From assembly GCA_035546615.1 (NCBI GenBank), contig DASZWM010000002.1, positions 32,001 through 96,000 of the forward strand: DNA of 64,000 nucleotides, given 5' to 3'. The position numbers and the translations under genes were made by a program. Position 1 is the first letter of the stretch. Each line of letters opens with the position of its first letter. The DNA is from Minisyncoccota bacterium (GTDB lineage: Bacteria; Patescibacteriota; Minisyncoccia; Phycocordibacterales; SBAW01). Shown in pieces: positions 1,364 through 58,106 of the stretch. The notes beneath the pieces were generated by a model. It did not search any database, was not told where the DNA came from, and saw only the letters and a program-made list of their open reading frames with translations.

Positions 1364-1432
1364 CGCTCCTGCCGCAGTATGCGCCTGAACCGACACGACT
1401 ATACCATGCGTTCGTGGGGTATACTTATACGC

Positions 1433-1990
1433 ATGGCAGAGAGTACTTTTTTGCACCCGGGTGCGGCGGTGCGAGCGGCCGGCATACATGAGGGGCTGCT
1501 CGTAGCCGACTTCGGGGCGGGGTCCGGCTTTTTTACCCGGGCGGCGGCGCGCGAGGTAGGCGATGCGGGCGCAGTGTGGGCGGTAGACCAGAATCGCGAC
1601 CTGTTGCCGCGCATCAAGAACCTTTCGGCAGGCGAAGGACTCAACAATGTAGAGGTTATGCACGGCGATATCGAGGTGGTGGGCGGCACCAACCTGCCGG
1701 AGAACCATTTCGACTTCGTTATTCTCGCCAACGTGCTTTTCATGCTCTCCGAGCGCGGCGAATGCATGGCGGAGATGCGCCGTGTGCTCAAAAAGACCGG
1801 CCGCGTTCTTGTTATCGACTGGAAGGATTCATTCGGGGGCCTTGGGCCGCATCCGGACCATGTGATCACTCAGGAAGCGGCACAGGCGCTGTTTGAAAAG
1901 CACGGCTTCACCATGGGCCCCGCGGTGCCGGCGGGCGAGTATCATTGGGGATTTGTCGTTCGCAAAAAAGCCGCGCAGGGCGCATTATAG
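1433..1990 (+). CDS. class I SAM-dependent methyltransferase
   Basis: Motif I VADFGAGSGFFT and a downstream acidic motif typical of Rossmann-fold MTases; an alternative start lies at 1379. Confidence 0.7.
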   Translation: MAESTFLHPGAAVRAAGIHEGLLVADFGAGSGFFTRAAAREVGDAGAVWAVDQNRDLLPRIKNLSAGEGLNNVEVMHGDIEVVGGTNLPENHFDFVILANVLFMLSERGECMAEMRRVLKKTGRVLVIDWKDSFGGLGPHPDHVITQEAAQALFEKHGFTMGPAVPAGEYHWGFVVRKKAAQGAL

Positions 1991-1999
1991 ATACAGGAT

Positions 2000-3301: not shown

Positions 3302-3304
3302 GCG

Positions 3305-3787
3305 ATGAAACTATTTTTCTTCAAGCATAAGGAAGTCATGCGCGTGCTATTTACGGTGACAATATTCTTATTGCCAATCATAGCTCTTGGGGCAACTTCT
3401 TCGGGCGGCAATACGTTGCCCACGTCCTCCGGCGGCAACACCTTGCCGACCTCCTATGGCGGCAATACGGCAAATTCAGGCGACAACTGCGACCCCAGGG
3501 TCCAGGTATGCAACCCGCTCCAGTTCCATAGCATCTGCGGCCTGGTGACCGGCGTGTTGGATGCCATCATGGTAATCGGCATTCCGATAGCTATAATGTT
3601 CGTCGTATGGGCCGGATTTAAATTCGTCGTAGCGCAAGGCAATCCGGAATCCATTTCACAGGCTAAAACCAATTTTCTGCATGTCATCATCGGCATCGCC
3701 ATATTCGTGGGTGCTTCGCTAATCGCGCATGTCATCATGCAAACGATCGAAAATCTCGGAGTGACCGGCATTAGTTCCTGCCAATAA
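3305..3787 (+). CDS. TrbC/VirB2-like pilin family small membrane protein
   Basis: Signal peptide, SSGGNTLPTS repeats, Cys pair, then two hydrophobic helices (IPIAIMFVVWAG ... IGIAIFVGASLIAHV), the VirB2-type topology. Confidence 0.5.
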   Translation: MKLFFFKHKEVMRVLFTVTIFLLPIIALGATSSGGNTLPTSSGGNTLPTSYGGNTANSGDNCDPRVQVCNPLQFHSICGLVTGVLDAIMVIGIPIAIMFVVWAGFKFVVAQGNPESISQAKTNFLHVIIGIAIFVGASLIAHVIMQTIENLGVTGISSCQ

Positions 3788-3788
3788 T

Positions 3789-4145
3789 ATGCCGCTCACC
3801 GCCGCCGCTACGCTTTCAAACCAATCGTCGCTCAAAGATGTCGCATTATTCGCGGTGGAGATTCTCAACTCCCTGGTTCCGGTCCTCCTGGTGCTTATCC
3901 TCGTGCTCTTTCTCTGGATAGGGGTGCAGTATATCTACCGGGCCGACGGTGAGAACAAGGCCTCTACCCGGGAAGCGATTCTCTGGGGGCTTATAGCGCT
4001 ATTTGTCGCCTTCTCAGTGTGGGGAATAGTGCGCCTGGCTTGCAGCACGCTTCTTGGCACCAGCGAATGCAGTTCAGGCAGCAGCGGTGGAGGGGGAAAT
4101 GCAAACCAGGCGCCGCTCAATATCATTCCCGAATCGGCCCGCTAA
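3789..4145 (+). CDS. pilin-like small membrane protein (paralog)
   Basis: Two TM helices with the REAILWGLIALFVAFSVWGIVRL motif shared with the neighbours. Confidence 0.4.
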   Translation: MPLTAAATLSNQSSLKDVALFAVEILNSLVPVLLVLILVLFLWIGVQYIYRADGENKASTREAILWGLIALFVAFSVWGIVRLACSTLLGTSECSSGSSGGGGNANQAPLNIIPESAR

Positions 4146-15772: not shown

Positions 15773-16873
15773 ATGCGCAATAGGGGTGCCGTACTCATAT
15801 TTGCGGGAGGGCTGCTCTTTACCCTCTTGCCGTTTATCGCCTCGGCCGCCGGGATTGTTCCATGTGGCGATACCACGGGCCTTGCGCCAGGTACTCCTCA
15901 GTATTACGCGGCCGCAACAAGTTGTCAGGCATGCAGCGTAATTCAACTGATTCAGACCCTTATTAACTTCATGATAGGACTCTCCATTCCTATCGCGATG
16001 GCGCTCTTCGCCTGGGCCGGCGTCCTGTATTTTACAGCCGCTACCAAGGAGGAGAATATATCAAAGGCAAAGAGCATTTTCCGCAGCGTATTTGTCGGAT
16101 TCATCATAGTTCTCGGCGCATACCTTATGGTAGAGACGCTCCTGCACGCCATTCTTAATCAGGATTACTTTACCGGCTGGAACAAGATCGAATGCGTTGA
16201 TAATACCAAGCGCCCAACCCAGGGCACGCTCGGTCAACTGATAAATGAAGTAATAGGCCATCCGGAAGATTCTTTAGTTGTTGGGAAGGCTCCTGTCGCG
16301 GTAAGCGATCCGTCTACATGTACCGGCAAACTGAGCTACGACAGCTCTATCAATCAGTATTACTGCTTGAATACAGTCAGCGGCATGGTCAGTCAAACAG
16401 GCTCTGGACAGTGTGCGCCCGGCAGCATACAAGCTGCTGCTGCGGCGGGAGGATATCCCATTACACCAGCACAAGCTCAGACCTTTTCCTGCCTTGCGGC
16501 TCCGGAAAGCGGTTGCCAAGGGAATCCTGGCCAAGCCAGGACGCCGACCGGCGACCCGACAAGCGCTTCCGGCCATTTTCAGATCGTCCTTGGCCTCAAT
16601 GATCAGTGTCATAATCTGAATATTCCTGCATGCACCCAGGCTGCGCAAGCAGCCGGCTATTCGGTAAGCGGGAATCTCAATTGCTCCAGCCACTTCAGGG
16701 GAGGCGTTCCTATAGACGCAGTAGGACAGGCATGCAAGGCGGCGGCAAGCAACTTTACCTGCAATGCTTCGGCTGCGGCTTGTCTGGTAACGCAGAATCC
16801 AAGCTTTAGCGACTGGACGGCGGACCCTCGCAGCAGTTCACAGAAATCATGCGTCAATACGTATAATCATTAG
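15773..16873 (+). CDS. TrbC/VirB2-like pilin domain fused to a large Cys-rich C-terminal extracellular domain
   Basis: N-terminal 130 aa paralogous to 3305..3787 (C..C, IPIAMALFAWAG, ISKAKS, two TM helices), followed by about 230 aa with many Cys/Gly/Ala/Ser. Confidence 0.5.
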   Translation: MRNRGAVLIFAGGLLFTLLPFIASAAGIVPCGDTTGLAPGTPQYYAAATSCQACSVIQLIQTLINFMIGLSIPIAMALFAWAGVLYFTAATKEENISKAKSIFRSVFVGFIIVLGAYLMVETLLHAILNQDYFTGWNKIECVDNTKRPTQGTLGQLINEVIGHPEDSLVVGKAPVAVSDPSTCTGKLSYDSSINQYYCLNTVSGMVSQTGSGQCAPGSIQAAAAAGGYPITPAQAQTFSCLAAPESGCQGNPGQARTPTGDPTSASGHFQIVLGLNDQCHNLNIPACTQAAQAAGYSVSGNLNCSSHFRGGVPIDAVGQACKAAASNFTCNASAAACLVTQNPSFSDWTADPRSSSQKSCVNTYNH

Positions 16874-20390: not shown

Positions 20391-20557
20391 GCTTTTTATG
20401 GCGGGGGGAATCGGCTACCACGTAGCCAGGTACTTTTCGATCTCGATGACTCGATAACGAAAAGTCTTTCGATTCTCCCATGGAAGCAAATCAATTTGCT
20501 TCCTCCCCGGACTCCAGACAGAAAAAGAGCCGGGCGGTAAGCCTGGCCTGTTTTCTG

Positions 20558-20644
20558 TGGTGCCGGGGGGGAGAATCGAACTCCCATGCCATTGCTGGCG
20601 CGGGATTTTGAGTCCCGTGCGTCTACCAATTCCGCCACCCCGGC
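20558..20644 (-). tRNA. tRNA-Leu(CAA) with encoded CCA
   Basis: Reverse complement GCCGGGGTGGCGGAATTGGTAGACGCACGGGACTCAAAATCCCG...GGGAGTTCGATTCTCCCCCCGGCACCA. Confidence 0.85.
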
Positions 20645-20673
20645 TTGTGTTGGCTCGTGTTAGAATATCGTTT

Positions 20674-21672
20674 ATGGCAGGGTTTTACAATAACGCTATT
20701 TTCTGGGTCGAAGTAGAGAAGATACGGCCGAATCCCTTTCAGCCGCGCAAGGAATTCGACGAGGCGAAATTGCGCGATTTGGCAAACTCCGTGCGCCAGT
20801 ACGGCGTAATCCAGCCGCTTACCGTCACGCGACACGAGGTGCAGAAGGAGGACGGCGGGCTGGCTTCCGAATACGAGCTTATCGCCGGCGAGCGCCGGCT
20901 GCGCGCGGCGAAGATGGCGGGCATCACCTCGGTGCCCGTGCTTATCCGCGACTCGTTCGACGACGACAAGACCAAGCTGGAGCTCGCGATAATCGAGAAC
21001 CTTCAGCGCGAGGACCTCAATCCCATAGACCGTGCGCTGGCCTTCGACCGGCTGGTGAAGGAATTCAGCTTCAAGCACGCCGAAGTTGCCGAAAAGATAG
21101 GCAAGAGCCGCGTGTACGTCTCCAACACCATCCGCCTGCTGGGAATGCCTCCGGAAATGCAGCAGGCGCTTTCGGAAGGCAAGATAAGCGAAGGCCACAC
21201 ACGGCCGCTCCTCATGCTTGCCGACCGGCCGCAGGAGCAGAGCGTGCTCTTCCGCGAAATAATGCTGAAGCGGCTCACCGTGCGCGACACAGAAAGCATT
21301 GCGCGGCGCATCGCCTTCGACCGCGTGCGCAAGAAGGAATATCTCTATTCGCCGCAGATACTCGAAATGGAGCGCGAGCTGACCGAGGCGCTCGGCACCC
21401 GCGTTGCCATAGAGCCCAAGGAGAACGGCGGCAAAGTGTCCATAGATTTTATGAGCGAGGAGGACTTGCAGATACTTTTCGCGCACCTGGCGGCCAAGAT
21501 CAATGCTTCAAAAGAGGTGTCGACACAGCTGATACCCGCAGCCGCCACAGCTCTTGCTGAGGAACAGCCGGCGGCTTCCGACGTGCCGCTGGCGCAAAGC
21601 CTCGACGATCGTTCGCGCGACGAAATCACGAAGGACGAAAACACCTTCGACCCGACGAATTTCTCTATCTAG
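20674..21672 (+). CDS. parB: chromosome partitioning protein ParB/Spo0J
   Basis: ParB box motifs (YELIAGERRLRAAK, LELAIIENLQREDLNP). The track ORF start at 20557 overlaps the tRNA; ATG at 20674 chosen. Confidence 0.85.
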   Translation: MAGFYNNAIFWVEVEKIRPNPFQPRKEFDEAKLRDLANSVRQYGVIQPLTVTRHEVQKEDGGLASEYELIAGERRLRAAKMAGITSVPVLIRDSFDDDKTKLELAIIENLQREDLNPIDRALAFDRLVKEFSFKHAEVAEKIGKSRVYVSNTIRLLGMPPEMQQALSEGKISEGHTRPLLMLADRPQEQSVLFREIMLKRLTVRDTESIARRIAFDRVRKKEYLYSPQILEMERELTEALGTRVAIEPKENGGKVSIDFMSEEDLQILFAHLAAKINASKEVSTQLIPAAATALAEEQPAASDVPLAQSLDDRSRDEITKDENTFDPTNFSI

Positions 21673-25506: not shown

Positions 25507-28500
25507 TTACCCTTTTTCCACTTCGCTTGGCAAGCGCCCCGGCCAGCGGTACACGAGCGTCGGAATGAGAATGAGCGTCAGTATCATCGCGAAGGAAAGC
25601 CCGAAAAGAATGGCGAACGCCAGCGGCCCCCACAGGGCGGACGCGAAGGTGAGCGGTATCATGCCGATCACCGTGGTGATGGTCGTGAGGACGATGGGGC
25701 GCAGGCGCGAGGTCGCCGCCTCGACCACGATGTCGGAGAATGTGCGGCCCGCTCCCGCGTGGAGGCGCTGGAGTATGGAGTCCATGAGGATGATGGCGTG
25801 GTTGATAATGACGCCCGCGAGCGCAATGACGCCCAGAAGCGAGGAGAACGAGAGCGTCTGGCCGGTCAGCACCAGGCCGCCGAACACGCCGATGAGAGAA
25901 AGCGGGATAATGGCGAGCAGATACGTGGTGTAGCGGAATGAGTTGAAGGCAAGCACGAGAATGACGAACATAAGCGCCATGCCCGCCAACAGCGCGATAC
26001 CCATCTCGGCGAAGGACTGATTGGTCTCTTCGTTCTCGCCGCCGATAGATACCGTGACGCCCACGGGAAGCTCGACGCTCTTCATCTTCTCGTTGTACGC
26101 GGCAAGCACCGCTCCGGCGGTGTAGCCCGGCAGCGTATTGGCCGACAAGGTTACTATGCGCTCCCGGTCCTCGTGGTTGATTGTCGAGTCGTTGCGCGCC
26201 ACGCTTTCCTCAAGGAGCGAGCCGAGCAGTATCGTAGTCCCGCTCTGGGTGGTGATAGGCACCTGATGAAGCGCGTCTATGGTGGCGTTTGAGGCGTCAT
26301 GCGGGTCAATGTAGGACGGGTTTAGATTGAGAAGCACGTTTATGTCCACGTCGCGCTCGGCGCCCGAAATGGACGTTGCCTTCATGCCCGACACCGCGGT
26401 GCGCAGGGTAGAGGCCACTTGCGCGGCCGTCACGCCCGCCTGCGCGAGCCGCGAGCGGTCGATGCGAAGCTCGAACTGAACGGTCTCGTTCTTGTTTGAA
26501 GCGTCGACGCTGGTGGCGCCGGGTGTCGACTCGAGCACGCCGCGCGCGGCCGCCACCGCCGCATCCAGCGCGTCGCGGTCGGAGCCGAGGAACTTAATAA
26601 GTACGGGCGCGCCCACGGGCGGGCCGCCGGTCGGCTGGTCGGACGTTACCTTGGCGCTCCGGATGCCGGAAAGCTCTTTCCGGACTTGGCTCAGCACTTC
26701 GGTGCTGGTCTTCGAGCGGCCTTTCGGCAAATTGATGGTGAGGCTCGCAAATCGCGGATCGGACTGGGGATTGCCGCTGAATTCGCTGGTGCGGCCGACG
26801 GTCGTCACGAAGGACGCGATGTCGTGGTCGTTGTACAGCACTTCCTCCACCTGGCGCGCGACCAGATCGCTCTGATTGAGCGACGAGCCCGGCGGAAGCT
26901 CAATATCGGTATATAAAAAGTCTATGTCATCCTGCGGGAAAAAGCTCACGGGAAGCAGTCCCGCGATGGGCAGGGCGAGGGCCAGAACGAACGCGAGCGC
27001 CATGCCCCACAGGAAGCGGTTCTGGTTCTTCTTGTGATGCAGGAAGCTTTTCAGCTTCGCGGAGTACCAGGTACGCGCCGCCTCGGCGTACTCTTCCTGC
27101 TTGTCCAAGAGCCAGCCGCGCGCGCCTATCTTCTGCGAGAACATCATGGTGAGCGTCGGCACCAGCCCCAGCGCCACGAAAATGGAGGCGATGAGCACGA
27201 ATATGAGCGTGTACGGGATGCCGGCGATGAATTTGCCCACGATGCCCGAAATAAAGAAGAGCGGGAAGAACACCGCGACGGTCGTCATCGTGCCGCCGAT
27301 GAGCGGCCAAGCGTACTCGCGGAGGGCCTCGAAGGCAGCCACTTTTTTGTCGCCGAACGTGCGTATGCGGGTGTGTATGGCTTCGACGACGACGATGCCG
27401 GAGTCCACGAGGATGCCGATGGCGAGAATGAGCGAGAAGAGGGAAATAAAGTTGAGCGTGTTGCCGGTGTAGAGGAGCCCGACGAACGCGATAAGGAACG
27501 AAAGGGGAATGGAAAGGCCCGCGACTATCGCCTCGCGCCAGCCGATGGTCGCAAAGAGCACGAGCATCACGAGCACGACGGTCTCAAGCCCCGTGCGGGT
27601 AAGCTCGGTCAGGTCCTGCTGCACCTCGTCGCCGGCGTCCAGCGACACCACGACCTGGCTGCCGTCCAGAAGCCCTGCCTTGAGCGTATCAAGCCTTGCC
27701 TTCACCGCGCGGGTCACAGCGGTCACGTCCTGTCCGCGCACTTTGTATACCAAAAGGGTCATGGCCTGCTCGGAGGGCGCGCCCGCAACCGAGATGCGCG
27801 AGTAGGAGGTCGCCTTCTCGACGCCGTCGGACACGTCGGCGATATCGCGCACGTAGATGACCTGCCCGCCGACGTTCAGTATCGCCACCGAGCCGATGTC
27901 CTCGGTCGTATCGAAGCTGCCGTCGAAGGCGATATTGTAGTTGATGTCATTGACCTCGATGGAGCCCACCGGAAGCGACGAGTTCGCAGCGCCTATGGCC
28001 GCCACGACCTGGGGGAGCGAAATGCCGTAGCGCGCGAGGTCCTCCTTGCGCACGACGACGTCTATCTCGCGGTTGCGCACACCGGAGATGTCTACGCGCT
28101 GGACTCCCTTCACGGCCTGGAGCTCGTTCTGTACCTGATCGGCCAGTTCCGCCAGCTGGGCGAAGGGCTCGTTGGCGGAAATGGAGATTATCTGTATAGG
28201 CTGGTCGACGAAGTTCACGTCAGATACCGTCGGGTCCTTCGCTTCCGCCGGGAGGTCCACTTTCGCCTTATCGACCTCGTCCTTGAGCTTCTGGATGGAC
28301 TTGTCGAGGTCGGCCGACGCGAGGAACTGCACGGTCACGACCGAGATGCCGTCGCGCGATGTCGAGGTGAGCGTGTCGAGGTTCTCGATGTTGGCCAGAT
28401 GCTCTTCAAGCTTGTTAGTGACCAGGCGCTCGACGTCCTCGGCCGATGCGCCCGGAAGCACGGTCGATACGATGCCCACCGGGATGGATACTTCCGGCGC

Positions 28501-28611
28501 CGACTCCTTGGTGATGCGTACGGCCGCGAAGACGCCCGATATCGTGACCGCCGCGATGACGAGCAGGGTGAACTGGCGCTTTTCTATGAAGAATTTCCAG
28601 AATGACAGCAT
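25507..28611 (-). CDS. RND family efflux transporter permease (AcrB-like)
   Basis: 1034 aa, 12-TM RND architecture with two large periplasmic loops. Confidence 0.9.
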   Translation of the reverse strand: MLSFWKFFIEKRQFTLLVIAAVTISGVFAAVRITKESAPEVSIPVGIVSTVLPGASAEDVERLVTNKLEEHLANIENLDTLTSTSRDGISVVTVQFLASADLDKSIQKLKDEVDKAKVDLPAEAKDPTVSDVNFVDQPIQIISISANEPFAQLAELADQVQNELQAVKGVQRVDISGVRNREIDVVVRKEDLARYGISLPQVVAAIGAANSSLPVGSIEVNDINYNIAFDGSFDTTEDIGSVAILNVGGQVIYVRDIADVSDGVEKATSYSRISVAGAPSEQAMTLLVYKVRGQDVTAVTRAVKARLDTLKAGLLDGSQVVVSLDAGDEVQQDLTELTRTGLETVVLVMLVLFATIGWREAIVAGLSIPLSFLIAFVGLLYTGNTLNFISLFSLILAIGILVDSGIVVVEAIHTRIRTFGDKKVAAFEALREYAWPLIGGTMTTVAVFFPLFFISGIVGKFIAGIPYTLIFVLIASIFVALGLVPTLTMMFSQKIGARGWLLDKQEEYAEAARTWYSAKLKSFLHHKKNQNRFLWGMALAFVLALALPIAGLLPVSFFPQDDIDFLYTDIELPPGSSLNQSDLVARQVEEVLYNDHDIASFVTTVGRTSEFSGNPQSDPRFASLTINLPKGRSKTSTEVLSQVRKELSGIRSAKVTSDQPTGGPPVGAPVLIKFLGSDRDALDAAVAAARGVLESTPGATSVDASNKNETVQFELRIDRSRLAQAGVTAAQVASTLRTAVSGMKATSISGAERDVDINVLLNLNPSYIDPHDASNATIDALHQVPITTQSGTTILLGSLLEESVARNDSTINHEDRERIVTLSANTLPGYTAGAVLAAYNEKMKSVELPVGVTVSIGGENEETNQSFAEMGIALLAGMALMFVILVLAFNSFRYTTYLLAIIPLSLIGVFGGLVLTGQTLSFSSLLGVIALAGVIINHAIILMDSILQRLHAGAGRTFSDIVVEAATSRLRPIVLTTITTVIGMIPLTFASALWGPLAFAILFGLSFAMILTLILIPTLVYRWPGRLPSEVEKG

Positions 28612-28628
28612 GGGATGATGCGGCGGGA

Positions 28629-30158
28629 TTACTGCGCTACTTCTACCGTTTCCCTCGCGCGCAGGCCCCGGGCGTCCGTGACTATCAGCATGTCGGGAGT
28701 GGCGCCGTCGAGTATGACCACGCGGTCGCCGAGCAGCTCGCCTATCGTTACTGTATGCGCCACGAGCATATTGTTCGCGTCCACCGTAAAGACGCTCATG
28801 CCGCCCTGGCCAATCTTAAGCGCCGCAAGGGGAATGACGAGGCGCGCGGGAGCGGCGGCCGTGGCGGCGTTTTGCGCGCGGGCAAGCTCGACCGTGACCG
28901 ACTGGCCGTTGATGAGAGCGGTCGCGGAGCCGCTGATGCCGACGCGCACCTCTATTTTCTTGGTGACGGGGTCAATGGCGGGCGCGATGCGGGTTATGAC
29001 GCCGTCTGCCGAGCCGCCGAGCTTCGCCTTGCCGCCTACCGCAAGCTGGCGGGCGTCGGATTCGGTGACATAGGCTACCACTTCAAGCGCGCCGTTGTTG
29101 GCTACCGTAAGGACCGCGGAGCCGAGCTGGACGTAGTCGCCGCGCTTCAGCGACAGGGAATTGATAGTGCCGGAAATGGGGGCGCGGATGAGCGTATGCT
29201 CAAGGTTGGCGCGCGCGGAGGCGAGGCCCGCCTGGGCCTGCTTTACCGCCGCGGCGCTGACCGAGGCGTTTGCGCCGGTGCCCGCGATGCTCTGGCGGGC
29301 GCTGCCGAGCGCGGTTATGGAGGCGGTCACGGCCGTGCGCGCCGCGATAGTGGCAGCCTTATAGCCGTCCAGCACCGATGCGGTCACGACCTCGTCGGGC
29401 TCGCCGGCGTTAAGCGCGCGCAGGAGGGCATCGAGGAAGTTGCGCACCTGCTGGAGCTCGGCTTCGGTTTGAGCAAGCTCGCCGCTTTGGTCTGAGGCGG
29501 AAGAGATCTGCGCCGATGCGGCCTTCTGCCTGTCGAGCGCGGCATCGAGCGCGCTGCGCAGGCTTTCGGCCTCGCGTTTGGAGGCGGAATCTTCCGTCTT
29601 TACGCGCAGGTAATACGTGTGCGGCGTGGTATCCGGATTGATGAACATAGGGTCCGCCGCGTTGTGCACCGCGTTGTCTGCCGCCGCGTAGGCGGAGAGG
29701 AGCGCGCTTGCGGCGCTGGTGCCTGAAATGCCGGCGGAGGCCTGCGCCGCCTCGACGCCGGCCTGCGCCTGGAGCACCGCCGCGCGCTCGGACGCGTTCT
29801 CGACTTCCGCTACCACCGCGCCCGCGCCGACGTAGTCGCCGAGCTGGTAGTTGAGCGAGGTAATCTCGCCGGATTTCTCCGCGCGCACGGTAGCCTCGGA
29901 CTTGGAGCTCACGGTGCCCGCTACCGAAAGCCCGGAGGTCTGGTTGGAAAGGTCGGCGATGGAGCGCAGCTCAACGCTGCGGGTATTGTTCGGCGCCGCC
30001 GCTTCGGAAGCGCCGCCTGAGAACGCCGCGTGGAGGACGATAAGCAGGACGACCAGAACGCCCGCCCCCGCGGCGAGTTTTTTCCAGCCCAGACGCTTGG
30101 CTGTACGGGTCAGATACGAAACGAAGTCCTGGAGGCGCGCGAAAATAGATTGCAACAT
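28629..30158 (-). CDS. efflux RND periplasmic adaptor (membrane fusion protein, HlyD family)
   Basis: N-terminal TM, biotinyl/lipoyl-like hairpin (SGEITSLNYQLGDYV), long coiled coils, beta-barrel C-terminus. Confidence 0.8.
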   Translation of the reverse strand: MLQSIFARLQDFVSYLTRTAKRLGWKKLAAGAGVLVVLLIVLHAAFSGGASEAAAPNNTRSVELRSIADLSNQTSGLSVAGTVSSKSEATVRAEKSGEITSLNYQLGDYVGAGAVVAEVENASERAAVLQAQAGVEAAQASAGISGTSAASALLSAYAAADNAVHNAADPMFINPDTTPHTYYLRVKTEDSASKREAESLRSALDAALDRQKAASAQISSASDQSGELAQTEAELQQVRNFLDALLRALNAGEPDEVVTASVLDGYKAATIAARTAVTASITALGSARQSIAGTGANASVSAAAVKQAQAGLASARANLEHTLIRAPISGTINSLSLKRGDYVQLGSAVLTVANNGALEVVAYVTESDARQLAVGGKAKLGGSADGVITRIAPAIDPVTKKIEVRVGISGSATALINGQSVTVELARAQNAATAAAPARLVIPLAALKIGQGGMSVFTVDANNMLVAHTVTIGELLGDRVVILDGATPDMLIVTDARGLRARETVEVAQ

Positions 30159-38446: not shown

Positions 38447-38485
38447 GAAAAACATCCTTACAAACTTGAGAATGTAAGGATGTTT
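38447..38485. terminator. bidirectional hairpin built from the ACATCCTTACA / TGTAAGGATGT inverted repeat
   Basis: aaaacatccttaca-aacttgagaa-tgtaaggatgtttt between convergent genes. Confidence 0.4.
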
Positions 38486-38791
38486 TTAGAGATTCTGGAA
38501 GGATTTTAGGAAGCGGACGAATATCTTACCGTAGGGCGAAAGCCGGTGCTCCACGAACTTGCCGCGATACTTTTTTGCGATAAGGCCGGCCACATAGAGC
38601 CGCCTGGTGTGCTCGCCGATGGTCTTCTCGTTCGCATTAAGGGTCGCCGCAATAGTATCGAGCGTAACGCCCTCGTGCCGGGCGATAAGAAGCAGTATCT
38701 CGATGCGGTAATGATTTGCCATGCCCTTGAGATGGCGTTCCATCTGCTTTGCCGTCTTCGTATTTTTCATGCGGGAGAGTATACATGACAC
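38486..38791 (-). CDS. ArsR/SmtB family transcriptional regulator
   Basis: HYRIEILLLIARHEGVTLDTIAATL wHTH signature. Confidence 0.7.
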   Translation of the reverse strand: MSCILSRMKNTKTAKQMERHLKGMANHYRIEILLLIARHEGVTLDTIAATLNANEKTIGEHTRRLYVAGLIAKKYRGKFVEHRLSPYGKIFVRFLKSFQNL

Positions 38792-38797
38792 CCCAAC

Positions 38798-38819
38798 ATT
38801 CTCAAGTTTGTAAGGATGT
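38798..38819. promoter_or_regulatory. putative operator half of a 22-bp inverted repeat flanking the ArsR gene
   Basis: attctcaagtttgtaaggatgt is the exact reverse complement of 38452..38473. Confidence 0.35.
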
Positions 38820-38890: not shown

Positions 38891-38961
38891 TGCCCGATCG
38901 TCTAATGGTAGGACAGAGGCCTTTGAAGCCTTTAATTGGGGTTCGAATCCCTGTCGGGCAG
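38891..38961 (+). tRNA. tRNA-Gln(TTG)
   Basis: TGCCCGATCGTCTAATGGTAGGACAGAGGCCTTTGAAGCCTTTAATTGGGGTTCGAATCCCTGTCGGGCAG; U1-A72 pair as in bacterial tRNA-Gln. Confidence 0.8.
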
Positions 38962-38992
38962 CAAATGTAGCGAAGCGTAATTTGCGCCCGAA

Positions 38993-39125
38993 GGAAGCAA
39001 TGGGATTGCTTCCGGCAGGGATTCGAAAGCCGGAGCGGGACCCGCATCAGCAGATGCGGGAGCGAGGCAGGGTCGTGCGGCTAAAGTTGCGACGGCAACT
39101 TTAGAACGCCTGACCGAATCCCTAA
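38993..39125 (+). repeat. structured repeat family F2, copy C (3' of tRNA-Gln)
   Basis: ggaagcaat-GGG-attgcttcc; GGATTCGAAAGCCGGAGCGGGACCC; gcatc-AGCA-gatgc hairpin; GGGAGCGAGGCAGGGTCGTGCGGC; aaagttgc-GACG-gcaacttt; tail CCTGACCGAATCC pairs with the 5' GGATTCG. Confidence 0.65.
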
Positions 39126-39185
39126 GAAGTTTCTAGTTTTCTCTGTCTCTAGGCAGAATCACTTTTTGATGGTAAATCTGTCCTG

Positions 39186-40859
39186 ATGCCGTATTCGACT
39201 GATATGTCAGTGTATTTAGATTTGGGCGGCGCTTTAGCTGCTTTTGGCCTTTTATTTACTGTTTACCAACTTCGGCGACCAAGGTGGGAGGTAATTTTGC
39301 GAATTAGAAATAATTGGCAAAGTGATATTTTCTGGATATTAGGTTTTATAGGTTTGTTTTATGCCCTAGTTGGCGTGCTTGTATCTGAACTCCCAATTAA
39401 TTCTTTCAACTTTCCGTTTAATACCCCATTACTTTACGAGGTGGCAGCGTACCTATCGTTTGTAGCTTCACCTCTGTCATTAATATATTTTGCGACCAAT
39501 GACAAAAAGTTATTTAACGCAAAAACTGCAGAAACTTTCTACGAAGTAATCTTGCAAGAAATTTCTAAATCTAGTGATGTAAACCTAGATGCGGCATTGG
39601 AAATAGTCTTGAGAAACTTTAATGAAATTTGTGATGCAACTCTTCAAAATACAGATAAAGATTTGCGCTCATACGCAAGGTCAATTTTAGACGTTGTACT
39701 AAGTGACGAGTCTGTAGTAAAAGTGCTCACTACCAAGAGGCTTGATGCTTTGCAATATATCTTTTATTTAATAAAGGAAAAGAATATCACTCGTGCTCAT
39801 TCGGGGATAGGTATACCGAGAATTGTAAATAATCTTTTCTTTGACGAAAATTCCTTCCTCTATAAACAACTCGATAGAAAAGGGTTGGCACTTTCATCAA
39901 ATATATACACGAGCATTTTTGAATCTCCAGTTATACTCACCAACTTTGATCTGTTTGGGTACCCGACTATCGGTTATGGAATGAGTAGAGATACTGGCAA
40001 TGCTGGTATAAGAGTATTTATCAAAGCCTTATCTCTAAGCATTGAAACTTACTTTAAAACAGGGAGCGTGCCTCCGAGGCACATTAATAATGGGTTGTCT
40101 TACTTAAGCAATATATTTGGAGGGTTGTGTGCAAAAATTGCCATCAAAGAAAATAAAGGTGTTGATACTAAATCTAGTTTAGAAGATGAGTGGTGGGGCT
40201 TACATCAAATAGCCTCCTTTTTAGGACATGATTATATTTTTCTTGCCTATGAAGAAAAACTAAATCAGCAAGTTCTGGAAAACGAAAAAACTGCCCATGA
40301 GGCTCGATTTGGCTCAAATGCAACTATAAATGAGGGTATTGCAGCTGTTATCTATAAAGCTTTTGAGCAGCTTTCACAAATTAAAAAAACCACAGACATA
40401 TATCATACAGTTCTGGAGCTCTTGCATGGAATGATGAATGAGCCTACCTACAAGGAAGGTTATAGACCGCCTTTTGAAAAGAGACTCTGGCAACAAATCG
40501 GTGCAAATGTTGCTAAACGTTATTATCCTGCCGTCGTTAGAACGTATTTAACCTTTGTTGGGTTCTGTCTTGGCGCAGATGCAAACCAACGACAAGGTTG
40601 GATTGGCGAACAAGCGGAACGTATGAGACGACTTTTGTATATTGACCTTAAGCCTTTATTTGATAAGAATGAAAAAATGATAAATAAGGAATTTATGAAA
40701 GACGTTTTGCTCCCAGATTCCATGTCCTATAAAGATGGTAAATTTACTTATACCTCTGGATTCGGAGAAGGTACAACCACTGAAGTAGCACCACCCCCTG
40801 AGGGTGCGACATCAGGTTTGGAAGGAATAGATTTAGAGAGTATGCCTCACTTCGTCTAG
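39186..40859 (+). CDS. hypothetical membrane protein (AT-rich island gene 1; 557 aa)
   Basis: Three N-terminal TM helices and a large soluble domain with no recognizable family. Codon usage and GC clearly differ from the flanks. Confidence 0.5.
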   Translation: MPYSTDMSVYLDLGGALAAFGLLFTVYQLRRPRWEVILRIRNNWQSDIFWILGFIGLFYALVGVLVSELPINSFNFPFNTPLLYEVAAYLSFVASPLSLIYFATNDKKLFNAKTAETFYEVILQEISKSSDVNLDAALEIVLRNFNEICDATLQNTDKDLRSYARSILDVVLSDESVVKVLTTKRLDALQYIFYLIKEKNITRAHSGIGIPRIVNNLFFDENSFLYKQLDRKGLALSSNIYTSIFESPVILTNFDLFGYPTIGYGMSRDTGNAGIRVFIKALSLSIETYFKTGSVPPRHINNGLSYLSNIFGGLCAKIAIKENKGVDTKSSLEDEWWGLHQIASFLGHDYIFLAYEEKLNQQVLENEKTAHEARFGSNATINEGIAAVIYKAFEQLSQIKKTTDIYHTVLELLHGMMNEPTYKEGYRPPFEKRLWQQIGANVAKRYYPAVVRTYLTFVGFCLGADANQRQGWIGEQAERMRRLLYIDLKPLFDKNEKMINKEFMKDVLLPDSMSYKDGKFTYTSGFGEGTTTEVAPPPEGATSGLEGIDLESMPHFV

Positions 40860-40861
40860 AT

Positions 40862-41419
40862 ATGAATCCAAACATTTGGTTTTACACTTTTAGTACAGCA
40901 GCCCAAGTAATGGCGGCTTTGGCCGGTTTATTTGCAGTATTTGTTGTATATAAGATTCAAGATTTTAGTCAGCTTATAAAAGACGCCCGCTCTAGTCTGT
41001 CCCGGTTGATTCCATACAATTCAGCGAATACGGGCGGAGATACAATCTCTAAGCAGGAAGTATTAGATATGACTGATAGAGAATTGGTTACTACGCTTGC
41101 CGAGTTGTTAGTACTTGAGACATCTCAGAATGGAGCGTTCTTTAGCGGACATTCAGAAACTATAGATGGCACAACGATAGCTGTAAACTCGAATACCTAC
41201 GACTATTTCGCAGCCCTTGTTGATAAAAAGGAAAGAATACTAAAACGTCTGATTTTTGTCTTGGGTTTAAGTTTAGGAACTATTTGTGTTTGTCTAGTAT
41301 CATTGGTGCTAATTGACGTGTTATCAAAGTTTGAGTGGTTTATTTGGATGTGTTTGGCTTTATTTATATACACCCTTTGGACAATCGGAATGGATATTTA
41401 CAAGATAACCCTAGAGTAA
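40862..41419 (+). CDS. hypothetical membrane protein (island gene 2)
   Basis: One N-terminal and two C-terminal TM helices; starts 3 nt after gene 1. Confidence 0.45.
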   Translation: MNPNIWFYTFSTAAQVMAALAGLFAVFVVYKIQDFSQLIKDARSSLSRLIPYNSANTGGDTISKQEVLDMTDRELVTTLAELLVLETSQNGAFFSGHSETIDGTTIAVNSNTYDYFAALVDKKERILKRLIFVLGLSLGTICVCLVSLVLIDVLSKFEWFIWMCLALFIYTLWTIGMDIYKITLE

Positions 41420-41428
41420 TCTTTCTCT

Positions 41429-41752
41429 ATGAAAGGAATAATTATCGAAAATAGTCTCAAAGACAAAAGTATTATCACCGAAGCTGAAATTATTCGAACT
41501 TGGGAAGATGGAAGTTGGAAGTTGCGGGAGGTAAAAGTTTCAACAGAATGGGCTGAAAAATTTGGAGGATACTTAAATGATGGACCCTGGTATGTTCACT
41601 TTTGGGAATCCGACAGCGACGATGTACTAGTAGTATTTAAAGACAAAAGCTTCTGGATCAAACATTCGGACAAGAATACTTGGCAAGATGCTATTGCTCA
41701 TGGAAAGTCGTTACATATACCCGTGGAGCAATTAGACTTTCCTATTGATTGA
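41429..41752 (+). CDS. hypothetical soluble protein (island gene 3, 107 aa)
   Basis: ORF only; AT-rich. Confidence 0.4.
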   Translation: MKGIIIENSLKDKSIITEAEIIRTWEDGSWKLREVKVSTEWAEKFGGYLNDGPWYVHFWESDSDDVLVVFKDKSFWIKHSDKNTWQDAIAHGKSLHIPVEQLDFPID

Positions 41753-41790
41753 GATTTCGATTTCTCCCTTTTATATTATATAATCAAGAT

Positions 41791-42174
41791 ATGAAGTATT
41801 TGCTAATCACGGCTTTATTTTTGGTTGTCTTTGTGTTTGCTACTCCAGCAAAGGCCGCACCATTAACCCAATCCCAAGTAAATGCAATAATTACTATTAT
41901 GCAGTCTTTCGGTGTAGATAGTGCTACGATTTTAAATATCAAAACAACACTCTCTAATTCGACTTCCGCTAAGGTAGAATCCGTCGTCAAAACTACTTTT
42001 AAAGGAGTTCCTACCTACGCACAAGTGAAAAGAGAGTTAGCAAAATCACGCAATAAGGAGGTGACTTATATGGAGAATGGATGTGTATACTCAATAAACC
42101 ATTTAGTGAGTGAACATATTTTCAAAACACGCGATATGAGTATTCGCGATCTTGCATCTGGAGCAAGTTGTTAG
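41791..42174 (+). CDS. hypothetical secreted protein (island gene 4)
   Basis: Signal peptide MKYLLITALFLVVFVFATPAKA. The track start at 41749 would overlap gene 3. Confidence 0.4.
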   Translation: MKYLLITALFLVVFVFATPAKAAPLTQSQVNAIITIMQSFGVDSATILNIKTTLSNSTSAKVESVVKTTFKGVPTYAQVKRELAKSRNKEVTYMENGCVYSINHLVSEHIFKTRDMSIRDLASGASC

Positions 42175-42217
42175 TGCTCCTTGGTGTATAAAGTTTAAAA
42201 ATATAGTTAATCTTCTC

Positions 42218-42700
42218 TTACCCCCGTCGCGCCGCATCAATAGCGGCAACGTCGAGCTTTTTCATCGTCATCATCGCGTCAAACGCGCGTTTTGCCTCAT
42301 CGCCGCCCTTGGCAAGTGCTTCGGTCAGCGTGCGCGGCGTTATTTGCCACGATACTCCCCAGCGGTCCTTGCACCAGCCGCACTCGCTCTCCTGGCCGCC
42401 GTTTCCGACGATGGCATTCCAGTAGCGGTCCGTCTCTTCCTGATCGTCCGTCGCTATCTGGAAGGAAAACGCCTCGCTTTGCTTGAAATACGAGCCGCCG
42501 TTAATGCCCATGCAAGGAATCCCGCAGACCGTGAACTCTACCGAGAGCACGTCGCCTTTCTTGCCCGACGGGAAATCGGCAGGCGCATGGAAGACGCCCG
42601 TTACCTTGCTGTCGGGGAACGTAGCGGCATAGAAATTCGCCGCCCCTTCCGCATCCTTATCAAACCAGAGGCAAATAGTGTTTTTTGGTATCATATACAT
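42218..42700 (-). CDS. VOC superfamily protein (PhnB-like, 3-demethylubiquinone-9 3-methyltransferase domain)
   Basis: CLWFDKDAE...NGG...SFQI...DQEETDRYW...CGWCKDRWGVSWQI pattern. Confidence 0.6.
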   Translation of the reverse strand: MYMIPKNTICLWFDKDAEGAANFYAATFPDSKVTGVFHAPADFPSGKKGDVLSVEFTVCGIPCMGINGGSYFKQSEAFSFQIATDDQEETDRYWNAIVGNGGQESECGWCKDRWGVSWQITPRTLTEALAKGGDEAKRAFDAMMTMKKLDVAAIDAARRG

Positions 42701-42800
42701 ATATTTTATAGCACCTCAGGATAATCTACAAAATAAGCGGAGGCTCCGGAAAAGGCCCGACATCGTCCCAGAGGATCCATCCTTTGCTATACTGGCCACT

Positions 42801-53436: not shown

Positions 53437-53855
53437 TCGGGTAGTACCAAGTAAGTTTTACATATGGGAAAAGGGAACAACGCGTATCGCAAGGACAAGA
53501 AGAAGCCGAAAAAGGGCGGCAAATAATACGCCCGTCTTAACCGAGCCTACATGCATGCTCGCGTATGCTTGGAGCGAGGTCGAGATTATTGGTCGTAAGA
53601 GCAGGAATTCGTATGGCAAACAATGATAGGAGTTCCAGCACGAGCAGCCGCAGCTCTTCATCGGGCAGCAACTCGCATCAAGGGGGCAGTTCGCGCGGGG
53701 GGCGCTCAAGCGGCAGCGATAGCGACAGATAGCGTACACTAGCGCACAGGGATGCTGGACATCCGCTGTGCGGCAAAAGGCAGCCTTACACAGGCTGCCT
53801 TTTGCAGGGCCCCTATCAAAAGTAAAAGGGCGGCGCGCAAGCGCCGCCCCCAACG

Positions 53856-54680
53856 CTACCTGACCACGGCCCTCTTCTGCCGTATGTTGGCCTCCATGTT
53901 CGCTATTTCCGCGTCGAATGCCGGATCGTTCGACCGGCGCAGCTTCACCACGTTCACGCTATGGAGAATGGTCTTTGAATCCCGGTCCCCGAAGTAGGAG
54001 GACATCTTCGCATAGATCATGCCGGTCATGGACCTCACCAAAAAAATCGCGACGTGACGCGCGAGCCGGTATCTGCCGACCTTGATATCGGATTCAAGAT
54101 CGGAAACCGTTACGTCATAGTGCAGGGCAACAGTTTCCTTTATCAGCGTGATGAGGTCTTCCTCGTCCTCCGTGTTTTTCTGGCTCTCGAGTACCGCCTC
54201 AATCCCGTCGAAGCTCTCGAGAACGACAGGCGCTGCTGAGAGCGGCTGTGCAGCCGGCTTTTCAGAAGATGCGTCTTCAGGAGTATCCTCCCGGGGCGGC
54301 GGCTTAGCCTTCGCCTCGGTCTTGGGGTTTTTTGTCGCAGCGGCCTTTTTGGCGGCTTCTTGCGCAGCCGTGGCCGCTTGATAGATGCGGCCCTTTTGCG
54401 TCGCGATGCTGCGCACCGCAACCAGCACCTCCGTCACGCCGTTGCGCTCTGCCTGCCAGGCGGCAAGCAGGCGCGCGCGATAGATGTCGAGTATCTGTCT
54501 GCGCAGGCCCGCTACGGGGACGCTGACACTGACGGTTGCCTGCGTTATTCCTTCAAGTTCCATTCGCCGGAAGAAGGCACTGAAGGCATCCTCGCCCAGA
54601 TCCTTTTTCAGGCGTTCCTGCACGCGCGACCACTGCTTTGCCGCGTTCGTGCCTTCCCCCACGGGGGTTTGAGCATCCAT
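53856..54680 (-). CDS. DnaA-like protein with DnaA N-terminal domain I and C-terminal DNA-binding domain IV but no AAA+ domain
   Basis: N-terminus WSRVQERLKKDLGEDAFSAFF..MEL (domain I pattern); C-terminus LARHVAIFLVRSMTGMIYAKMSSYFGDRDSKTILHSVNVVK (domain IV FGGRDHTTV-like). ATG at 54680 with a GGAG RBS; only 274 aa. Confidence 0.55.
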   Translation of the reverse strand: MDAQTPVGEGTNAAKQWSRVQERLKKDLGEDAFSAFFRRMELEGITQATVSVSVPVAGLRRQILDIYRARLLAAWQAERNGVTEVLVAVRSIATQKGRIYQAATAAQEAAKKAAATKNPKTEAKAKPPPREDTPEDASSEKPAAQPLSAAPVVLESFDGIEAVLESQKNTEDEEDLITLIKETVALHYDVTVSDLESDIKVGRYRLARHVAIFLVRSMTGMIYAKMSSYFGDRDSKTILHSVNVVKLRRSNDPAFDAEIANMEANIRQKRAVVR

Positions 54681-54842
54681 CCCTATACTCCTTTTGCCTC
54701 TTAGGCGCCCCAAGGCGCGAAAACAAAATCCAAATACACTTAAACACATCCTCCTGGATTTTCAAGTGAATGGGGCAGGGCAGATTGACAATATCCGTTC
54801 TATTATATATAATCATAAGCGACTGAATCTCTTTTAGTCGTT

Positions 54843-56081
54843 ATGTATCAAGGCAATTCTTCATCTCGCCGCCCTACTAACCGCTCCGGCGGCCGGCCTC
54901 AATTCGGTACCAGGAAGCCCTTTCACAGCGGCGGCCCTTCTAGGCGCTTTGCCCGCCCGGCTCCGCGCACGAACCATATCGACGTATCGCGCTATATCAA
55001 CAAGGCGGTCATTACCGAGGAAGTGGAGCGCTTCGTGCCCGAGCACAAGTTCGCCGATTTCGCGCTTGATGAGCGCCTCAAGGCAAATATCGTAAAGAAA
55101 GGCTATGTCGAGCCGACGCCAATACAGGACCGCTCTATTCCGCACATCCTGCGCGGGGAAGACGTCGTCGGCATCGCCAATACCGGAACGGGCAAGACCG
55201 CGGCATTTCTCATACCGCTCATCCATAAAGCTATTACTCAACGCAGTGAGCGCGTGCTTGTTATGGTGCCCACGCGCGAGCTCGCCCAGCAGATAGCAGC
55301 GGAGCTCAAGGAGTTCACGCCGGGACTCCAGATATTCTCGGCAGTAGGCGTAGGCGGCGCGGGCATCGGCCCGCAGATGGCGGATCTCCGTAAGAAGCCG
55401 CAATTCGTTATCGGCACGCCGGGGCGCCTCAAGGACCTGCTCGAGCGCAAAGCGCTTATCCTCTCCAACTTCCAGACGGCGGTCCTCGACGAAGCCGACC
55501 GCATGCTCGACATGGGCTTTATCGCCGATATGCGCCGCATCCTTTCGCTTTTGCCTTCCCCGCGCCATACCCTTTTCTTTTCCGCGACGCTTTCCCCGGA
55601 AATAGAGAAGCTCATCGGCGAGTTCCTCCGCACGCCGGTGCGCGTCTCGGTTAAGACCCGCGACACCTCCTCGACCATCGACCAGGATGTCGTGCGCGTG
55701 GCACCCGGCACCAACAAGCTCGACGTCCTCCACGACATGCTCGTAAAGCCTGAGTTCAACAAGGTGCTTATCTTCGGCCGCACCAAGCACGGCGTCGAGC
55801 GCCTCTCTAAAACGCTTGTGGAGCGCGGCTTCCGCGCGGAGTCCATTCACGGCAACAAGACGCAGGGCAAGCGCCAGAAAGCGCTCGAGCTCTTCAAGCG
55901 CGACCATGTGCAGGTGCTCGTTGCGACCGACGTCGCCGCGCGCGGCCTGGACATCAACGGCGTCTCGCACGTCATCAACTATGACCTTCCTGCGTCGCAT
56001 GAGGATTACATCCACCGCATCGGCCGCACCGGCCGGGCAGGGAAGAAGGGTCAGGCGCTTACCTTTATCGACGGCAAGTAG
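54843..56081 (+). CDS. DEAD-box ATP-dependent RNA helicase
   Basis: Q motif, ANTGTGKT, DEAD (VLDEADRMLDMGF), SAT, HRIGRTGR motifs. Confidence 0.9.
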   Translation: MYQGNSSSRRPTNRSGGRPQFGTRKPFHSGGPSRRFARPAPRTNHIDVSRYINKAVITEEVERFVPEHKFADFALDERLKANIVKKGYVEPTPIQDRSIPHILRGEDVVGIANTGTGKTAAFLIPLIHKAITQRSERVLVMVPTRELAQQIAAELKEFTPGLQIFSAVGVGGAGIGPQMADLRKKPQFVIGTPGRLKDLLERKALILSNFQTAVLDEADRMLDMGFIADMRRILSLLPSPRHTLFFSATLSPEIEKLIGEFLRTPVRVSVKTRDTSSTIDQDVVRVAPGTNKLDVLHDMLVKPEFNKVLIFGRTKHGVERLSKTLVERGFRAESIHGNKTQGKRQKALELFKRDHVQVLVATDVAARGLDINGVSHVINYDLPASHEDYIHRIGRTGRAGKKGQALTFIDGK

Positions 56082-57545: not shown

Positions 57546-58106
57546 ATGGAGCGGAAGATACTTATTCTGATAGGAACGCTTGCGGCACTCGTTCTTATCG
57601 CCGCGGCGTATGCTGTCCTGCATGGCCCGCAGGGTGCGAACGGTTCCGCGCCGGGCTCTAAACTCGTTCCATACATTTCGCAGGACCTCGGCATAGCGTT
57701 CGCCTATCCCGCGCGATACGAATTGTCGGAAGACGTCACCGCCGGCGGATATGTGCTGACGCTGGGCGATAAAGAGGCGCTCGCCGCCGCCCGCGCCAGG
57801 GAAGTATCCGAGGGTCCGCCGACCATCGCTATCGCCGCCGTCCAAAATCCCGACAACCTTTCGCTTGACGAATGGGTCAAGCAGGCGATAGAAGCCAATA
57901 GCAGCGCGACGGACCAGGAGCCCGCATCGACAATCCTGGCGGGGGAGCCGGCGCTCAAGTACCGCCTTATCGGCCTGTACGACAGCGATGCGACGGCGCT
58001 GATCCATAACGGGAGGATATATGTCTTCAGCGTCGCATGGCTTACGCCCGCGGATTCCATGGTCAAAGACTTTGAGCAAATCATAAAGAGCGTTACATTT
58101 ATCTGA
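57546..58106 (+). CDS. hypothetical membrane-anchored protein
   Basis: N-terminal TM only. Confidence 0.35.
   Translation: MERKILILIGTLAALVLIAAAYAVLHGPQGANGSAPGSKLVPYISQDLGIAFAYPARYELSEDVTAGGYVLTLGDKEALAAARAREVSEGPPTIAIAAVQNPDNLSLDEWVKQAIEANSSATDQEPASTILAGEPALKYRLIGLYDSDATALIHNGRIYVFSVAWLTPADSMVKDFEQIIKSVTFI

Follow-up and report, generated by a model that had tools for sequence, protein, structure and literature searches.

What can a protein do that carries the outer domains of the replication initiator DnaA without the ATPase domain between them? This question is raised by a gene in a 64,000-nt stretch of a Minisyncoccota genome (contig DASZWM010000002.1, positions 32,001 to 96,000 of the forward strand), which we call the window and in whose own numbering all positions are given. 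The gene lies on the minus strand and encodes a 274-amino-acid (aa) DnaA-derived protein, P0001. A database entry identical to it reads 'HTH domain-containing protein [Candidatus Paceibacterota bacterium]', HTH standing for helix-turn-helix. A first-pass annotation, made from the letters of the sequence, had described a DnaA-like protein lacking domain III and had suggested either a competitor at DnaA boxes or a DnaA-derived transcription factor. We found that this is an intact chromosomal gene, and that its product is probably a regulator and not an initiator.

Domain architecture and predicted structure

P0001 matched two Pfam families above their cutoffs, DnaA_N (PF11638) at residues 15-76 (E 3.8e-9, 36.6 bits against a cutoff of 24.6) and Bac_DnaA_C (PF08299) at residues 178-243 (E 7.9e-13, 48.7 bits against a cutoff of 31.5). 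The AAA+ family Bac_DnaA (PF00308) gave no match in the 274-aa protein at E values up to 10, and the score for the NCBIfam DnaA equivalog TIGR00362 stayed below its cutoff (95.5 bits against 343.9). A phmmer search of the PDB sequences returned matches restricted to DnaA domain IV chains. Because the single-sequence PDB search with domain I alone gave no match, a fold search was needed to confirm this domain.

The AlphaFold2 model, built on 30 relatives with a mean predicted local distance difference test (pLDDT) value of 84.9, showed four parts: an alpha/beta domain (residues 11-90), a helix (92-116), a disordered stretch (117-169) and a helical domain (170-273). Both domains were modelled confidently, with block-mean pLDDT values of 94-98 for residues 11-90; the values for residues 121-170 were 46-56. 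In Foldseek, the N-terminal domain matched DnaA domain I of B. subtilis and H. pylori (4tps_D/B, template modelling (TM) score 0.84-0.87; 2wp0). The C-terminal domain was superposed on domain IV of E. coli DnaA in complex with a DnaA box (1j1v_A, TM score 0.91, root-mean-square deviation 1.0 Å), and also on the M. tuberculosis DnaA DNA-binding domain (3pvp). The gene and its parts are as follows.

53856..54680, minus strand: coding sequence of P0001, stop codon at 53856-53858 included (open reading frame (ORF) listing and sequence)
54408..54650, minus strand: DnaA domain I (aa 11-91), K-homology-like alpha/beta fold (DnaA_N, AlphaFold2, Foldseek, alignment with E. coli DnaA)
54174..54407, minus strand: Ala-rich helix (aa 92-116) and disordered Ala/Lys/Glu/Pro-rich linker (aa 117-169) (AlphaFold2, composition)
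53859..54173, minus strand: DnaA domain IV (aa 170-274), helix-turn-helix DNA-binding domain (Bac_DnaA_C, phmmer, Foldseek)

The helix-plus-linker stretch at residues 92-169 stands where domains II and III would be. It contains 18 Ala, 9 Lys, 8 Glu and 8 Pro among its 78 residues, and the linker carries a short motif, LESFDGIEA, that is kept in the ortholog described below. An AAA+ domain in this stretch is ruled out because 78 residues are far too few. The DnaA-type N-terminal and C-terminal domains, the linker rich in Ala, Lys, Pro and Glu and the missing domain III, all of which the first-pass annotation had read from the letters, are thus borne out: both families are significant in profile searches, the model superposes on solved domains I and IV, and PF00308 is absent.

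A frameshifted or fragmented full-length dnaA at this locus had been named as the case that would speak against such an architecture. When 40 full-length DnaAs were compared with the window by tblastn, the matches fell only at 53874-54707, via domains I and IV, and no domain III fragment appeared in any frame across the 64 kb. A hidden, split or frameshifted domain III in the window is therefore excluded. P0001 would accordingly neither bind nor hydrolyze ATP, nor form a helical AAA+ filament, nor melt DNA, and for these reasons it is probably not an initiator. The earlier statement that it cannot be an initiator ATPase is supported by the absence of domain III in the Pfam, tblastn and AlphaFold2 results alike.

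Residue changes in domains I and IV

In E. coli DnaA, Trp6 serves the dimerization of domain I, and Glu21 and Phe46 form the site for DnaB and DiaA; in domain IV, the helix 434-451 contacts TnCACA through the major groove and Arg399 contacts TTA through the minor groove (PMC5742627, PMC5448010). The substitutions T435M and R399A abolish DnaA-box binding (PMC5742627). The residues of P0001 were mapped by alignment with the authentic E. coli DnaA, and the altered signature and the individual positions are listed here.

53958..53993, minus strand: altered DnaA signature FGDRDSKTILHS, aa 230-241 (alignment with E. coli DnaA)
E. coli Trp6: Trp17 in P0001, kept
E. coli Glu21: Ala32 in P0001, changed
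E. coli Asn44: Val56 in P0001, changed
E. coli Phe46: Gly58 in P0001, changed
E. coli Arg399: Lys200 in P0001, changed
E. coli Arg407: Arg208 in P0001, kept
E. coli Leu422: Tyr223 in P0001, changed
E. coli Pro423: Ala224 in P0001, changed
E. coli Asp433: Asp234 in P0001, kept
E. coli His434: Ser235 in P0001, changed
E. coli Thr435: Lys236 in P0001, changed
E. coli Thr436: Thr237 in P0001, kept
E. coli His439: His240 in P0001, kept

The signature of P0001 reads RDSKTILHS, against (G)RDH(T/S)TV(L)HA in DnaA. The change falls on His434 and Thr435, the residues that open the recognition helix. At these two positions, 254 of the 256 retrieved domain IV sequences show His and then Thr, Ser or Ala, and the sole deviants are P0001 (Ser-Lys) and its ortholog P0002 (Pro-Lys). 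This pair can be regarded as a natural experiment on how the recognition helix of DnaA determines sequence specificity.

An intact gene with a syntenic ortholog

An exhaustive HMMER search over 1.84 billion representatives returned only one close relative, P0002, a protein of 287 aa with 48-49% identity that aligns from Met1 to the end. It is present on 4 contigs from 3 samples, and one of these, a 209-kb contig (L002), is syntenic with the window. Both loci share the divergent DEAD-box helicase, two M14 carboxypeptidases, YecM, MsrA and Zincin_1, and also SIMPL, an Ig-like protein, CAP, a C39 peptidase and the dnaX-6PGL pair. P0002 likewise lacks domain III, which answers the question of whether orthologs have the same architecture. 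Further members of the subfamily were sought in several ways. A word search with P0001 against 5.8 billion protein clusters returned the query alone, a profile search with the P0001/P0002 pair gave no new member, and a scan of the GTDB species representatives with the alignment of the pair gave none. With the degenerate pattern FGxRDxKTILH, the matches in genome and metagenome contigs were all due to chance, among them one in an ABC transporter and several in non-coding DNA. The P0001/P0002 subfamily is very rare, with two known members.

Between the two genomes, 10 of 11 neighbouring proteins are 62-90% identical, compared with 48% for the DnaA-like protein; the eleventh, an unannotated protein of 186/180 aa, is 39% identical. 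By the Nei-Gojobori method, the nonsynonymous divergence (dN) of P0001/P0002 is 0.47 and the synonymous divergence (dS) is 1.39, giving an omega (dN/dS) of about 0.34, which is approximate only because dS is saturated. Omega was 0.30-0.39 when domain I, the linker and domain IV were taken separately. For the nine neighbours in which it could be computed, it was 0.04-0.16 in eight and 0.46 in one, the 186/180-aa protein. These values suggest that the DnaA-like gene is maintained yet fast-evolving, and a lineage-specific regulator fits this pattern better than core machinery or a dead remnant.

The signals around the gene are listed below.

54688..54693, minus strand: Shine-Dalgarno sequence AAGGAG, 7 nt 5' of the ATG (read from the sequence)
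54735..54770, minus strand: conserved upstream block (TTGAAA ... GTGTTT), tentative candidate promoter (alignment of the window and L002 intergenic regions)
53826..53851, minus strand: intrinsic terminator with an 11-bp GC-rich stem, a GCTT/GCAA loop and a T-rich tail, TTTTACTTTT (terminator scan)
53773..53805, unstranded: second perfect 13-bp hairpin, GCAAAAGGCAGCC-TTACACA-GGCTGCCTTTTGC (read from the sequence)

The ATG of the gene is at 54680 on the minus strand. A longer ORF of 297 aa from an ATG at 54749 was considered as the true start and rejected: the ortholog starts at the position corresponding to 54680, and the Shine-Dalgarno sequence favours the 274-aa form. The ATG at 54749 sits inside the promoter-like block and has no counterpart in the ortholog. 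This block stands back to back with the helicase promoter, and a sigma-70 consensus scan found no match on the strand of the DnaA-like gene for it.

The stem of the terminator at 53826-53851 is also kept 3' of the ortholog gene. The first-pass annotation had placed a strong bidirectional GC hairpin at the end of the gene. A terminator hairpin is indeed present, but its T-tail is on the minus strand only, and it is the second hairpin, at 53773-53805, that is bordered by an A-run and a T-run; it separates the DnaA-like gene from a 39-aa plus-strand ORF and could be a bidirectional terminator. We regard the DnaA-like gene as real because the same ORF is present in a separate assembly, a syntenic ortholog exists, dN/dS is about 0.34, and the Shine-Dalgarno sequence and the terminator are kept.

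The window is ordinary chromosome, with genes for IF-2, ClpB, ParB, RelA/SpoT, topoisomerase I, a resistance-nodulation-division (RND) pump, SerRS, Dus, dnaX and TGT. P0001 matched no PHROG family and, by tblastn, none of 72,556 plasmids, and PADLOC gave no match at the DnaA-like gene. With housekeeping neighbours in conserved synteny in addition, an origin of the gene from a mobile element was rejected.

Recurrence of the two-domain architecture

Relatives were taken from the best 150 HMMER hits, and about 30 of these were proteins of about 216-314 aa with the order domain I, linker and domain IV. DnaA_N and Bac_DnaA_C were found in 30 of 30 short relatives and Bac_DnaA in none of the 30. P0001, with significant DnaA_N and Bac_DnaA_C, no Bac_DnaA and 274 aa, belongs to the same class, which is defined here by this architecture and a length of about 200-350 aa. 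A profile search and the cluster listings added more such proteins, of 196-347 aa. P0001 is about 21-29% identical to the other members, most of which resemble alphaproteobacterial DnaAs.

The members come from different settings. P0044 carries the NCBI label Candidatus Paceibacterota. P0108 is encoded next to ComEC, a type IV pilus ATPase and platform protein, RecJ, PGK and TIM, a gene content that we take to resemble that of Paceibacterota relatives, and P0032 has an ordinary chromosomal setting. Other members resemble Beijerinckiaceae-type alphaproteobacterial DnaAs, and one cluster takes in a Methylocella metagenome-assembled genome and a 5.2-Mb contig. Two proteins of alphaproteobacterial type, P0161 (L006 10001-10819) and P0249 (L007 10001-10636), lie in regions rich in integrases and transposases; their surroundings hold a phage integrase, insertion sequence (IS) transposases, an Abi protein, a ParB-like methyltransferase and a serine recombinase. 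Such surroundings suggest mobile elements as carriers of some members of the class. In our judgement, P0056 and P0023 hold stretches resembling the two ends of domain III, that of the start reading 'SPLDRRLIFSNFL', and these point to an internal deletion of the ATPase core.

Such recurrence allows a broader and speculative proposal, which we consider rather unlikely as a whole. The 'mini-DnaA' proteins of domains I and IV may form a recurrent class of ATP-independent initiation regulators that arose when the AAA+ core was deleted repeatedly, both in Alphaproteobacteria and in Paceibacterota-like lineages. The clade of P0001 would then have re-specified its DNA-reading helix, would mark new chromosomal sites and would engage DnaA via domain I. 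In its most extreme form, this proposal would make P0001 the half of a split initiator that recognizes the origin, in a lineage whose canonical DnaA is unusual or missing.

DnaA boxes and origin signals in the window

A scan for DnaA boxes near the gene had been suggested with the first description of the locus and was run on the window. The motifs TTWTNCACA and TTATCCACA with at most one mismatch were neither enriched nor clustered in the 64 kb: 7 DnaA boxes were counted with at most one mismatch, against 4-13 in shuffled sequences, and none was within 1 kb of the gene. Iteron-like direct repeats were not found near the DnaA-like gene. In the intergenic region with the helicase, no repeated or palindromic operator was prominent. 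The GC skew of the window is too weak for calling an origin or a terminus.

Proposed function and alternative explanations

A DnaA-derived replication regulator or transcription factor, the latter one of the two roles first suggested, is plausible. The reading that we prefer, at a confidence that stops a little short of an even chance, is that P0001 may be an ATP-independent, DNA-bound, DnaA-derived modulator of initiation and/or transcription. A copy of dnaA would have shed its ATPase core through an internal deletion. Domain IV would still bind duplex DNA, as suggested by its fold and by the kept Arg407, Asp433, Thr436 and His439, with Lys at the position of Arg399. Its sites would probably be other than the canonical TTATCCACA box, because the recognition helix opens with Ser-Lys or Pro-Lys and not with the otherwise invariant His-Thr. 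Domain I would associate with a second copy of itself or with its counterpart in the cell's presumed DnaA rather than recruit the helicase, since the Trp6-type residue is kept and the Glu21/Phe46 patch is lost. P0001 may then modulate initiation at its own sites, where it would use domain I to cap, tether or titrate DnaA, and/or it may control transcription.

Several points weigh against this proposal. DNA binding by P0001 is predicted from its fold and residues, and repeated candidate binding sites were found neither near the gene nor elsewhere in the window. The domain IV of P0001 is near neutral, with an isoelectric point of 6.8 compared with 9.3 for that of E. coli, and Arg442 and Lys443, two basic residues after the recognition helix, are replaced by Asn and Val; its DNA affinity could for these reasons be weak or lost. 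The raised dN could also come from a partial relaxation of constraint instead of adaptive retuning.

Foremost among the alternatives, although unlikely, is a plain transcription factor without any link to replication, in which a DnaA-derived HTH of new specificity and a domain I dimer would act on its own promoter, the DEAD-box helicase or other targets. The altered recognition residues agree with this, the gene and that of the helicase diverge from a common 160-bp intergenic region, a layout that is kept at the ortholog locus, and DnaA itself acts as a transcription factor (PMC12112137). However, no repeated or palindromic operator is prominent in this region, its strongly conserved part is the core promoter and leader of the helicase, and at three other loci of the class (Paceibacterota-labelled or non-mobile chromosomal) the gene does not stand beside a DEAD-box helicase. 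Less probable again is an anti-initiator whose domain IV would occupy the canonical DnaA boxes of oriC and block the assembly of DnaA, with domain I perhaps adding cooperativity. The superposition on the 1j1v DnaA-box complex and the kept equivalents of Asp433, Thr436, His439, Arg407 and Trp6 would allow such binding, but Ser and Lys in place of His434 and Thr435 are unique to the subfamily among the 256 sequences and Arg399 is Lys, and E. coli T435M and R399A, at two of these same positions, abolish box binding (PMC5742627). Together with 7 boxes in the window against 4-13 after shuffling and none within 1 kb of the gene, these changes weaken the first-pass suggestion of a competitor at canonical boxes. 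Further down the order, we consider improbable a titrator in which the domain IV-like module would bind a protein, namely a Hda-type factor of regulatory inactivation of DnaA (RIDA) or DnaA, instead of DNA and would shift the level of DnaA-ATP. The family NF004688/PRK06030, which we assume to be that of HdaB, matched P0001 weakly and below its cutoff (E 7.7e-4, 19.5 bits against 136). HdaB of Alphaproteobacteria is a precedent for such a role: it is a stand-alone homolog of DnaA domain IV that binds HdaA, blocks RIDA and stimulates initiation, and it also has lost Arg399 but keeps Leu422, which is required for Hda binding (PMC7049699). The Lys at Arg399 and the non-basic domain IV of P0001 are in favour of this alternative; against it are the low score, the Tyr at Leu422, the lack of domain I in HdaB and the absence of a Hda-like gene among the window ORFs scanned.

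The last two alternatives deny the gene a function or its present form. A non-functional remnant, that is, a decaying dnaA duplicate so far uninterrupted, is still more improbable than the titrator. It could account for a dN that is 2-9 times that of most neighbours, for the ortholog identity of only 48% and for a subfamily with two members among 5.8 billion protein clusters. On the other hand, the ORF has stayed intact in two lineages between which dS exceeds 1, omega is about 0.34 and is similarly low in every part, the Shine-Dalgarno sequence, the terminator and the short linker motif are conserved, both domains fold confidently in AlphaFold2, and the same architecture seems to be maintained independently in many other lineages. 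An assembly or gene-calling artefact that dropped domain III deserves next to no weight: the window does come from a metagenome-assembled genome, but the reading frame is unbroken, an identical ORF is present in a separate assembly of the same sample, the architecture is shared by 30 other proteins, and the ortholog that also has it occurs on 4 contigs from 3 samples.

Neighbouring features of the window

The divergent DEAD-box helicase gene has a perfect TTGACA-17-TATAAT promoter at 54785-54813 on the plus strand. The promoter and the short leader (54785-54860, against 9820-9900 of L002) are almost base-for-base identical at the two loci, and the helicase proteins are 83% identical. A CGACT...AGTCG hairpin stands in the leader immediately 5' of the ATG, and a Shine-Dalgarno sequence is not obvious there. 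The leader may be a conserved regulatory element that responds, for instance, to temperature. On the other side of the DnaA-like gene, and convergent with it, the 39-aa ORF at 53613-53732 on the plus strand is rich in Ser, Gly and Arg (MANNDRSSSTSSRSSSSGSNSHQGGSSRGGRSSGSDSDR), is followed by the 13-bp hairpin and has no Pfam match. In the same neighbourhood of the ortholog locus there is a 41-aa gene with a weak match to KGG, a stress-protein repeat. The 186-aa protein at 57546-58106 on the plus strand (3196-3738 in L002), which has no Pfam match, evolves faster than the DnaA-like gene (omega about 0.46) and sits within an otherwise well conserved block.

In the region 38891-42724, a low-GC island (GC 0.38-0.45 against about 0.58 elsewhere) begins directly after a tRNA gene (38891-38961) and has five co-directional ORFs of 557, 185, 107, 141 and 190 aa with no Pfam or PADLOC match. 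L002 has different genes than the window after the dnaX-6PGL pair. The region is probably an inserted genomic island. A small minus-strand ORF just upstream of both tRNA and island is bordered by two related palindromic elements of 32 nt each, at 38452-38483 and 38788-38819 (ACATCCTTACAAACTTGAGAATGTAAGGATGT and a 72% identical copy).

A ParB homolog (ParB_N, HTH_ParB, ParB_C) is encoded at 20557-21672 on the plus strand with no adjacent ParA; upstream of it are an ORF for orotidine 5'-monophosphate decarboxylase and a weakly phosphoribosyltransferase-like ORF. Its true start is probably further downstream, because the listed GTG overlaps an opposite-strand tRNA (20561-20644). A full-length AcrB-type RND transporter (1034 aa) and a HlyD-like membrane-fusion protein are encoded at 25507-30158 on the minus strand. 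Small-genome lineages such as Paceibacterota are not usually associated with RND tripartite pumps, and the pump is worth attention if the NCBI label Candidatus Paceibacterota is correct. Several small proteins encoded at 1399-4145 and 15773-16873 match T4SS_pilin (PF18895).

Comparison with known systems

P0001 is homologous to DnaA (TIGR00362; DnaA_N, Bac_DnaA and Bac_DnaA_C) in domains I and IV by sequence and by predicted structure, and it keeps the equivalents of Trp6, Arg407, Asp433, Thr436 and His439. In contrast to DnaA, it has no AAA+ domain III and would thus lack the ATP switch, the filament and DNA melting; His434-Thr435 is replaced, Arg399 is Lys, and the DnaB/DiaA patch of Glu21 and Phe46 is lost.

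The closest counterparts in layout are the uncharacterized proteins of domains I and IV, which have the same two domains and a similar length (196-347 aa). They have the canonical GGRDH(T/S)TVLHA and a PT.F motif in domain I, whereas P0001 and P0002 form a separate divergent pair. These proteins are already in the databases under generic automatic annotations, 'helix-turn-helix domain-containing protein' or 'chromosomal replication initiation ATPase DnaA'. No publication that we could find in the searchable literature deals with natural DnaA proteins limited to domains I and IV, and this combination without an ATP switch seems to be unstudied there. Stand-alone 'DnaA C-terminal' proteins of many phages (BFVD/UniProt, uncultured Caudovirales, about 90-200 aa) resemble P0001 in having the domain IV fold and no ATPase, but mostly about 90-110 residues align, most targets are shorter than 150 aa, and they appear to lack domain I.

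HdaB is the only experimentally characterized precedent that we found for such a fragment regulating initiation. Like P0001, it is a small ATPase-less DnaA derivative with a domain IV-like module; it differs in having about 120 aa, no domain I and a kept Leu422, whereas P0001 has 274 aa, a domain I and Tyr223. Hda/HdaA, the AAA+-only, clamp-bound RIDA factor, is similarly a regulator derived from DnaA through the loss of domains, but it is the complementary fragment, consisting of domain III without I and IV, and P0001 consists of I and IV without III. Accordingly, DnaA fragments as regulators of initiation are already known, Hda as domain III alone and HdaB as domain IV alone. If proteins such as P0001 tether, cap or titrate DnaA, they would add to these a layer of replication control that is new and scattered across the phylogeny, also among poorly understood episymbionts with small genomes.

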